A stretch of 64,000 bases of DNA from Escherichia coli (GTDB lineage Bacteria; Pseudomonadota; Gammaproteobacteria; Enterobacterales; Enterobacteriaceae), in assembly GCF_003790525.1 (NCBI RefSeq), contig NZ_CP033635.1; one strand, written 5' to 3'. Positions within the stretch are counted from its first letter, which is position 1, and each line of letters opens with the position of its first letter. Positions 5,863 through 6,891 of the stretch are shown piece by piece. The notes below the pieces were generated by a model. It was not told the DNA's origin, did no database searches, and was given only the letters and a program-made list of their open reading frames with translations. The translations under genes were made by a program, and so were the position numbers.

Positions 5863-6891
5863 ATGCGCGCACTGCTATTGTTACTTCTTTCCCTTTTCAT
5901 GTTATCGGCATTTTCGGCTGATAACCTGTTGCGCTGGCATGATGCGCAGCATTTCTCGGTGCAAGCCTCTATGCCGCTTAAAGCCAAACGCGCATGGAAA
6001 CTGTGCGCGCTTTATCCCAGCCTGAAAGATTCATACTGGTTATCGTTGAACTATGGTATGCAGGAGGCTGCTCGCCGCTACGGTGTGGATTTAAAAGTGC
6101 TGGAGGCAGGCGGCTACAGCCAGTTGGCTACCCAGCAAGCACAAATCGACCAGTGTAAACAGTGGGGCGCAGAGGCCATCTTGCTCGGAAGTAGCACGAC
6201 GTCATTTCCCGACCTGCAAAAGCAGGTAGCAAATCTGCCGGTGATCGAACTGGTGAATGCTATTGATGCTCCCCACGTGAAAAGCCGCGTTGGTGTGCCC
6301 TGGTTTCAGATGGGCTATCAACCAGGACGATATCTGGTGCAATGGAGCCACGGTAAACCACTGAACGTGCTGTTGATGCCCGGCCCCGATAACGCCGGGG
6401 GCAGTAAGGAGATGGTAGAGGGTTTTCGCGCAGCCATTGCCGGAAGTCCGGTACGTATTGTTGATATTGCGCTCGGTGATAACGATATTGAAATCCAGCG
6501 TAACCTGTTGCAGGAGATGCTGGAGCGCCATCCAGAAATCGACGTCGTTGCCGGAACGGCCATTGCGGCAGAGGCGGCAATGGGGGAAGGGCGTAACCTG
6601 AAAACACCGCTTACCGTGGTGTCGTTTTATCTTTCACATCAGGTGTATCGCGGGCTGAAGCGGGGAAGAGTGATTATGGCTGCCAGCGATCAAATGGTCT
6701 GGCAGGGGGAACTGGCGGTTGAGCAGGCCATCAGGCAATTACAGGGGCAATCGGTGTCTGATAATGTCAGCCCACCGATTTTAGTTCTGACGCCGAAAAA
6801 TGCCGACCGCGAACATATCCGCCGCTCGCTGTCACCGGGGGGATTTCGTCCGGTCTATTATTATCAGCACACATCAGCGGCTAAGAAATAA
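5863..6891 (+). CDS. torT: Periplasmic TMAO-binding protein TorT
   Basis: 342-aa ORF with signal peptide; periplasmic binding protein fold; matches remembered TorT. Confidence 0.9.

Follow-up and report, generated by a model that had tools for sequence, protein, structure and literature searches.

The results of our analysis establish that the convergent Escherichia coli genes torT and torR share 28 bp of coding DNA at their 3' ends, and indicate that the shared segment is very likely an ordinary, ancient tail-to-tail overlap without dedicated function, in which torR governs the sequence and the C-terminal tail of TorT is a passenger. The overlap itself is already known: all E. coli genomes carry it in their standard annotation, and a published catalogue of overlapping transcription units includes the pair. 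Only the evolutionary reading is mildly new: that is, a passenger TorT tail together with a stop codon, anchored on a Gly-Tyr codon junction of TorR, that would hold the overlap at 28 bp. The overall importance of the overlap is little.

The coding ends of torT and torR occupy the same 28 bp

We analyzed a 64,000-nucleotide stretch of E. coli DNA (contig NZ_CP033635.1; hereafter, 'the window'), using for annotation the genome of E. coli SMS-3-5, in which positions 2138582-2140432 of NC_010498.1, in reverse orientation, are 100% identical to positions 5800-7650 of the window. The genes torT and torR are arranged tail-to-tail: they lie on opposite strands, and their 3' ends, including both stop codons, share nucleotides (Table 1). 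Re-reading of both open reading frames returned exactly the coordinates of the 28-bp convergent overlap reported in a first-pass annotation of the sequence. The description given there, that the overlap comprises the last nine codons of each gene, holds if the stop codon is counted, but the sense codons number eight, plus one base of a ninth. Read as torT (+ strand), the segment begins with the third base of the Y334 codon and continues through Q335-K342 to the stop; read as torR (- strand), it begins with the third base of the G222 codon and continues through Y223-C230 to the stop. The phase of the overlap is 123:213, such that torT and torR share their third codon positions. In a reading of all three frames, + strand frames that enter the antisense of torR without an earlier stop overlap torR by 21, 28 or 65 bp. 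The overlap is a deterministic feature of the DNA, not a statistical signal.

Table 1. Positions in the window of torT, torR and their shared segment
Feature	Coordinates	Strand	Description	Source
torT CDS	5863..6891	+	342 aa; stop TAA 6889-6891	ORF list, RefSeq, NCBIfam, PDB
torR CDS	7556..6864	-	230 aa; stop TGA on 6866-6864	ORF list, RefSeq, NCBIfam, Pfam, PDB
Dual-coding segment	6864..6891	both	28 bp	sequence; DNA identical in K-12
torT stop codon TAA	6889..6891	+	antisense: wobble base of TorR Gly222 (GGT) and first two bases of Tyr223 (TAT)	
torR stop codon TGA	6864..6866	-	+ strand reading: last base of torT TAT (Y334) and first two bases of CAG (Q335)	

Both genes are genuine protein-coding genes, as indicated by matches to equivalog models and by homologues with solved structures. 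TorT matches NCBIfam equivalog NF008185 with 494 bits (cut-off 200), also matches TIGR02955, and matches the TorT structure 3o1h in PDB at E=1.8e-70. TorR matches NCBIfam equivalog NF008034 with 429 bits (cut-off 275) over residues 1-230, and contains the Pfam domains Response_reg (residues 5-113; the receiver domain, matched by PDB 1zgz) and Trans_reg_C (residues 153-225). Since Trans_reg_C extends to residue 225 and the equivalog match covers residues 1-230, the overlap covers the codons for the final strand of the winged helix (Y223-L225) and for the conserved five-residue end of TorR. The two proteins act in one trimethylamine N-oxide (TMAO) pathway: TorT is the periplasmic TMAO-binding partner of the sensor TorS, and TorR is a response regulator of the OmpR family (PMC6814406).

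The overlap is conserved within E. coli and, at the same length, across four genera

The RefSeq annotation of SMS-3-5 carries the overlap at matching coordinates. Comparison with K-12 MG1655 (NC_000913.3), the check proposed in the first-pass annotation, shows the same genes in the same orientation with the same 28-bp overlap (torT b0994, 1056261..1057289; torR b0995, 1057262..1057954; overlap, 1057262..1057289), and the DNA of the overlap is identical in the two strains, with a few substitutions in the flanking codons (e.g., TorT Y333 in SMS-3-5 vs. F333 in K-12). A search with a 96-bp probe (at least 90% identity) found the junction in 5406 of 5426 complete E. coli genomes, and both genes are annotated beneath the match in every sampled row. 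Six matches to the torT-torR region in the same collection are on records labelled as plasmids.

To compare genera, we scanned tor loci with exact peptide patterns in one genome per species, which recovered 18 loci and missed Salmonella, Vibrio and Shewanella species, so that the phylogeny is patchy. The overlap is exactly 28 bp in 13 genomes from four genera, including E. coli, E. albertii, E. whittamii, four Citrobacter, three Providencia and Enterobacter ludwigii, with TorT identity in this group down to 65-77%. Different lengths are observed in Edwardsiella, in which three species have a 7-nt spacer where E. coli has an overlap and E. hoshinae has a 4-bp overlap, and in two Serratia genomes, in which the overlaps are 21 and 54 bp, that of Serratia H1w corresponding to the 21-bp frame. 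In every genome of the 28-bp, Edwardsiella and Serratia groups the C-terminus of TorR reads ...HGEGY(F/L)LAA(D/E)V-x. TorT is conserved through GFRPVY, and the residues thereafter differ between the three groups.

A distant locus (L023), with a TorT only 44% identical, has the same gene order as E. coli (torS<- torT-> <-torR) with a tail-to-tail overlap, here of 31 bp (L023:3945-3975) between torT and the torR-like gene, and here, too, the torT stop codon falls on the Gly-Tyr junction of the regulator. In this locus and in all 13 genomes with the 28-bp overlap, the torT stop codon is TAA or TAG in the same place. Other loci depart from the E. coli arrangement: in one, torT and torR are separated by two other genes (L022), three have no adjacent torR (L021, L024 and L026), and one has torT and torR co-directional (L025), with a convergent overlap instead between torR (+) and torS (-), of 34 bp (L025:4977-5010). 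The presence of the torT/torR overlap in relatives shows that it is neither a sequencing nor an annotation accident. What goes beyond chance is the retention of exactly 28 bp across four genera in which TorT is 65-77% identical. The position of the torT stop codon on the conserved Gly-Tyr junction of TorR accounts for this unusual stability in length from genus to genus.

The shared segment evolves like other torR coding DNA

To assess which protein constrains the shared segment, we counted variable positions in the 13 genomes with the 28-bp overlap, using sequence that codes for TorR only as the reference. Within the overlap, 9 of 10 shared third positions vary and 4 of 18 non-third positions vary (22%); in torR-only sequence, 29 of 30 third positions vary and 15 of 60 first and second positions vary (25%). 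The overlap thus evolves in the manner of regular torR coding sequence, and, apart from the stop-codon base, TorT imposes no additional constraint that is visible. That base of torT is always A or G: because the torT stop is always TAA or TAG, the TorR Gly codon always ends in a pyrimidine, the distant 31-bp locus included.

We propose the following account. The genes would have come to converge without a spacer either through loss of torT's own stop codon or through loss of a spacer. As it now stands, the torT frame passes the torR stop and enters the antisense of the last eight codons of torR, ending at the first in-frame stop, the TAA or TAG presented by the antisense of the conserved Gly222-Tyr223 codon junction of TorR. 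Selection on TorR would govern the segment, since residues Y223-L225 close the winged-helix DNA-binding domain and the AADVC tail is conserved too, and the eight TorT residues QHTSAAKK would be a passenger tail past the conserved periplasmic-binding-protein fold. With wobble positions coinciding, torR could evolve almost normally, and the TorT tail would change little as a by-product. The stop at the Gly-Tyr anchor would fix the length at 28 bp, provided that the third base of the Gly codon stays a pyrimidine. Each mRNA must extend into the other gene, and its termination probably depends on Rho or is diffuse. The 3'-complementary transcripts so formed are real, but with both genes expressed at a low level their regulatory effect is probably small.

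This account places torT/torR among known overlaps of its kind. E. coli has 58 convergent overlaps, which are best explained by mutation of a stop codon, 3' extension being the other route by which tail-to-tail pairs of prokaryotes are explained (Lillo & Krakauer 2007, PMC2174442). Like these, the torT/torR overlap is short, involves 3' ends and is closed by the first stop that the frame meets within the neighbouring gene, and its phase, 123:213, is that of the common 4-nt convergent overlaps; unlike these, it is 28 bp in length as compared to a modal length of 4 nt, and among convergent overlaps of at least 5 nt, phase 123:213 accounts for only 18% (PMC2174442). Against the reading as an ordinary overlap, the persistence of the arrangement over large distances, as in the 31-bp version at 44% TorT identity, could reflect selection for the arrangement.

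Transcript overlap and the possibility of a functional excludon

With no spacer and no recognisable terminator between the genes, the 3' ends of the torT and torR mRNAs are necessarily complementary: since each mRNA has to include its own stop codon, overlap of the transcripts is logically unavoidable. The first-pass annotation raised the possibility that the overlap causes transcriptional interference between the two genes; at this locus, interference is a generic possibility only. A rival to the account above is that torT/torR is a functional excludon: that is, that 3' complementarity of the mRNAs and head-on RNA polymerase traffic allow each gene to damp the other, which may set the TorT:TorR ratio or add to the known stochastic expression of torCAD. 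Transcripts of neighbouring genes overlap in excludons, as those of torT and torR must, and an RNA-seq meta-analysis using ExcludonFinder lists torT-torR among 165 convergent excludons of MG1655 that are detected in at least half of 58 transcriptomes, placing the pair in the core MG1655 excludome, in a study in which p19 capture was not feasible for convergent excludons, such that the convergent cases were not validated by that method (PMC12288877).

Published strand-resolved data for strains with and without rnc mutations bear on the same hypothesis (PMC7373196 Table S1c; RPM per gene, from single libraries with low counts in one growth condition). Sense/antisense values for torT are 9.07/3.28 in WT, 5.25/1.72 in rnc-14 and 5.95/1.98 in rnc-38; values for torR are 17.8/1.76 in WT, 12.75/1.39 in rnc-14 and 9.18/1.61 in rnc-38. 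Antisense reads accordingly amount to about 36% of sense reads in torT and about 10% in torR. The antisense signal within torT is appreciable and fits read-through from torR, and some RNA-level interaction of torT and torR is possible. However, in these single libraries the sense RNA of neither gene rises in rnc-14 or rnc-38, where processing of an excludon duplex by RNase III would predict stabilised mRNAs. Furthermore, expression of torT and torR is low (9 and 18 RPM), so that polymerase collisions should be rare.

The biology of the pair also speaks to the hypothesis from both sides. The output of torCAD is sensitive to the stoichiometry of the tor regulators (PMC6814406), and the tail-to-tail arrangement is deeply conserved. 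However, classic excludons exhibit overlap through long UTRs, opposing functions and exclusive expression, whereas torT and torR overlap within their coding sequences and cooperate: no opposing or alternative functions are found, the co-sensor TorT and the regulator TorR sharing the TMAO pathway, and a requirement for both proteins together is an ill fit with mutually exclusive logic. In addition, the arrangement gives way to a spacer in Edwardsiella, and to inserted genes or co-directional genes in other lineages, and the constraint on the shared sequence is no greater than that on torR coding sequence. We consider a functional excludon unlikely. Cast as a working mechanism, in which antisense pairing or polymerase collision would couple TorT and TorR levels, feed noisy, bet-hedging expression of torCAD and explain persistence of the arrangement to a 44%-identical TorT, the hypothesis is, in our judgement, decidedly unlikely. 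Were it true, a two-component system that has been studied in detail would gain a link at the RNA level.

The C-terminal tail of TorT

A different hypothesis under which the overlap would be selected is that the TorT tail QHTSAAKK is functional itself, for example in contact with TorS or in stability, in which case TorT and TorR would both constrain the segment. Among genomes with the 28-bp overlap, the tail hardly varies. However, such low variation is to be expected as a side effect when wobble positions face wobble positions and the end of TorR is conserved, and the double constraint that the hypothesis entails is not visible, the variability of non-wobble positions in the overlap equalling that in torR-only sequence.

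Comparison of TorT with its homologues and models points in the same direction. Unrelated sequences replace the tail in Edwardsiella, in Serratia and in all distant TorT homologues: in an alignment of 30 homologues, the C-terminal tails are unrelated and range in length from 2 to more than 20 residues, and distant TorT representatives align only up to residues 329-335. Homology of TorT to the crystallised proteins 3o1h and 4yhs ends at residue 332-333, where both PDB chains end, and TIGR02955, the model specific to TorT, extends no further than residue 333. In favour of a functional tail, the alignment to Pfam Peripla_BP_1 reaches residue 337, and the AlphaFold2 model of TorT, which has a mean pLDDT of 91.9, retains moderate confidence for residues 331-340 (mean pLDDT 83), with values below 50 only at residues 340-342. 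Judged from this model, the tail may contact the body of the protein; the model is equivocal on whether the tail is disordered, as a prediction that neither proves nor excludes it. Taking these points together, we regard selection for a functional TorT tail as very unlikely, and favor the reading in which torR governs the segment and the TorT tail is a passenger.

Terminator-like sequences and RNA structure at the junction

A further alternative, that the shared segment serves as a bidirectional intrinsic terminator within coding DNA, has precedent: in E. coli, terminators acting in both directions are known between convergent genes, and intrinsic terminators are predicted for about 20% of genes in convergent overlaps (PMC2174442). 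The torT/torR junction lacks the G+C-rich hairpin with A-tract and T-tract that defines such an element. No terminator-like site is found downstream of either stop codon on either strand, and no inverted repeat of at least 7 nt is found within 6760-7000. RNA folds of the junction on the two strands are no better than those of shuffled sequence (z-scores of +0.78 and -1.39), which argues against the terminator hypothesis, and Rfam covariance models give 0 matches at E<=1 on either strand of 5500..8000. An embedded terminator is highly improbable.

That the overlap is an artefact of annotation or reading, with one gene truly ending earlier, has next to no probability, and is refuted by the sequence itself: nothing was found in its support (mechanical ORF lists may mislead on start codons, not on stops), stop codons are set by the reading frame, both frames are open to the first in-frame stops in Table 1, these stops agree with RefSeq in both SMS-3-5 and K-12 and with conserved protein ends, TorR is conserved to its last residue (equivalog model spanning 1-230 of 230), and TorT is 342 aa in length in 119 of the 120 closest TorT clusters (near-identical E. 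coli and Shigella sequences, which are uninformative on distant relatives).

Consequences and neighbouring features

Edits at the 3' end of torT, whether a tag, a reporter fusion or a deletion, also alter torR, and vice versa; published torT-lacZ strains carry a deletion of torR (PMC6814406). The pair also illustrates that a conserved motif on one strand (here Gly-Tyr, in the wing of the OmpR family) can set the stop codon of the neighbouring gene and, hence, the length of an overlap.

Upstream of torT, the torS-torT intergenic region is the attachment site of phage HK022 and an IscR-regulated promoter region (PMC6814406). A 979-aa torS open reading frame from TTG 5987, whose extension (5781..5987) would overlap the torT start at 5863, was rejected as an artefact; the annotated start is GTG 5780 (VNLTLTRR...), as in K-12. 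RefSeq labels torS of SMS-3-5 (3037..5780, -) a 'frameshifted' pseudogene, the cause being a 1-bp deletion near 3063, nine codons before the K-12 stop. The SMS-3-5 product is 910 aa ending ...EAWLIRKT, as compared to 914 aa ending ...EAWLHKKDLNAI in K-12. Because the change is limited to the extreme C-terminal tail, torS of SMS-3-5 may well still be functional.

Twelve convergent junctions are annotated in the window, and two of these overlap: torT/torR and appA/cspH. The latter is a 13-bp convergent overlap (566..578) between appA (+, stop TAA 576-578) and cspH (-, stop TGA on 568-566), with wobble positions facing wobble positions as in torT/torR. On the same strand, clsC and ymdB have an annotated 59-bp overlap (45230..45288), which may reflect choice of start codon. 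In the RefSeq annotation, convergent msyB and yceK abut with zero spacer (52741|52742), and convergent mdoC and clsC are separated by a 7-nt spacer (46712..46718). The published list of excludons that contains torT-torR also contains yceK-msyB and clsC-opgC (PMC12288877).
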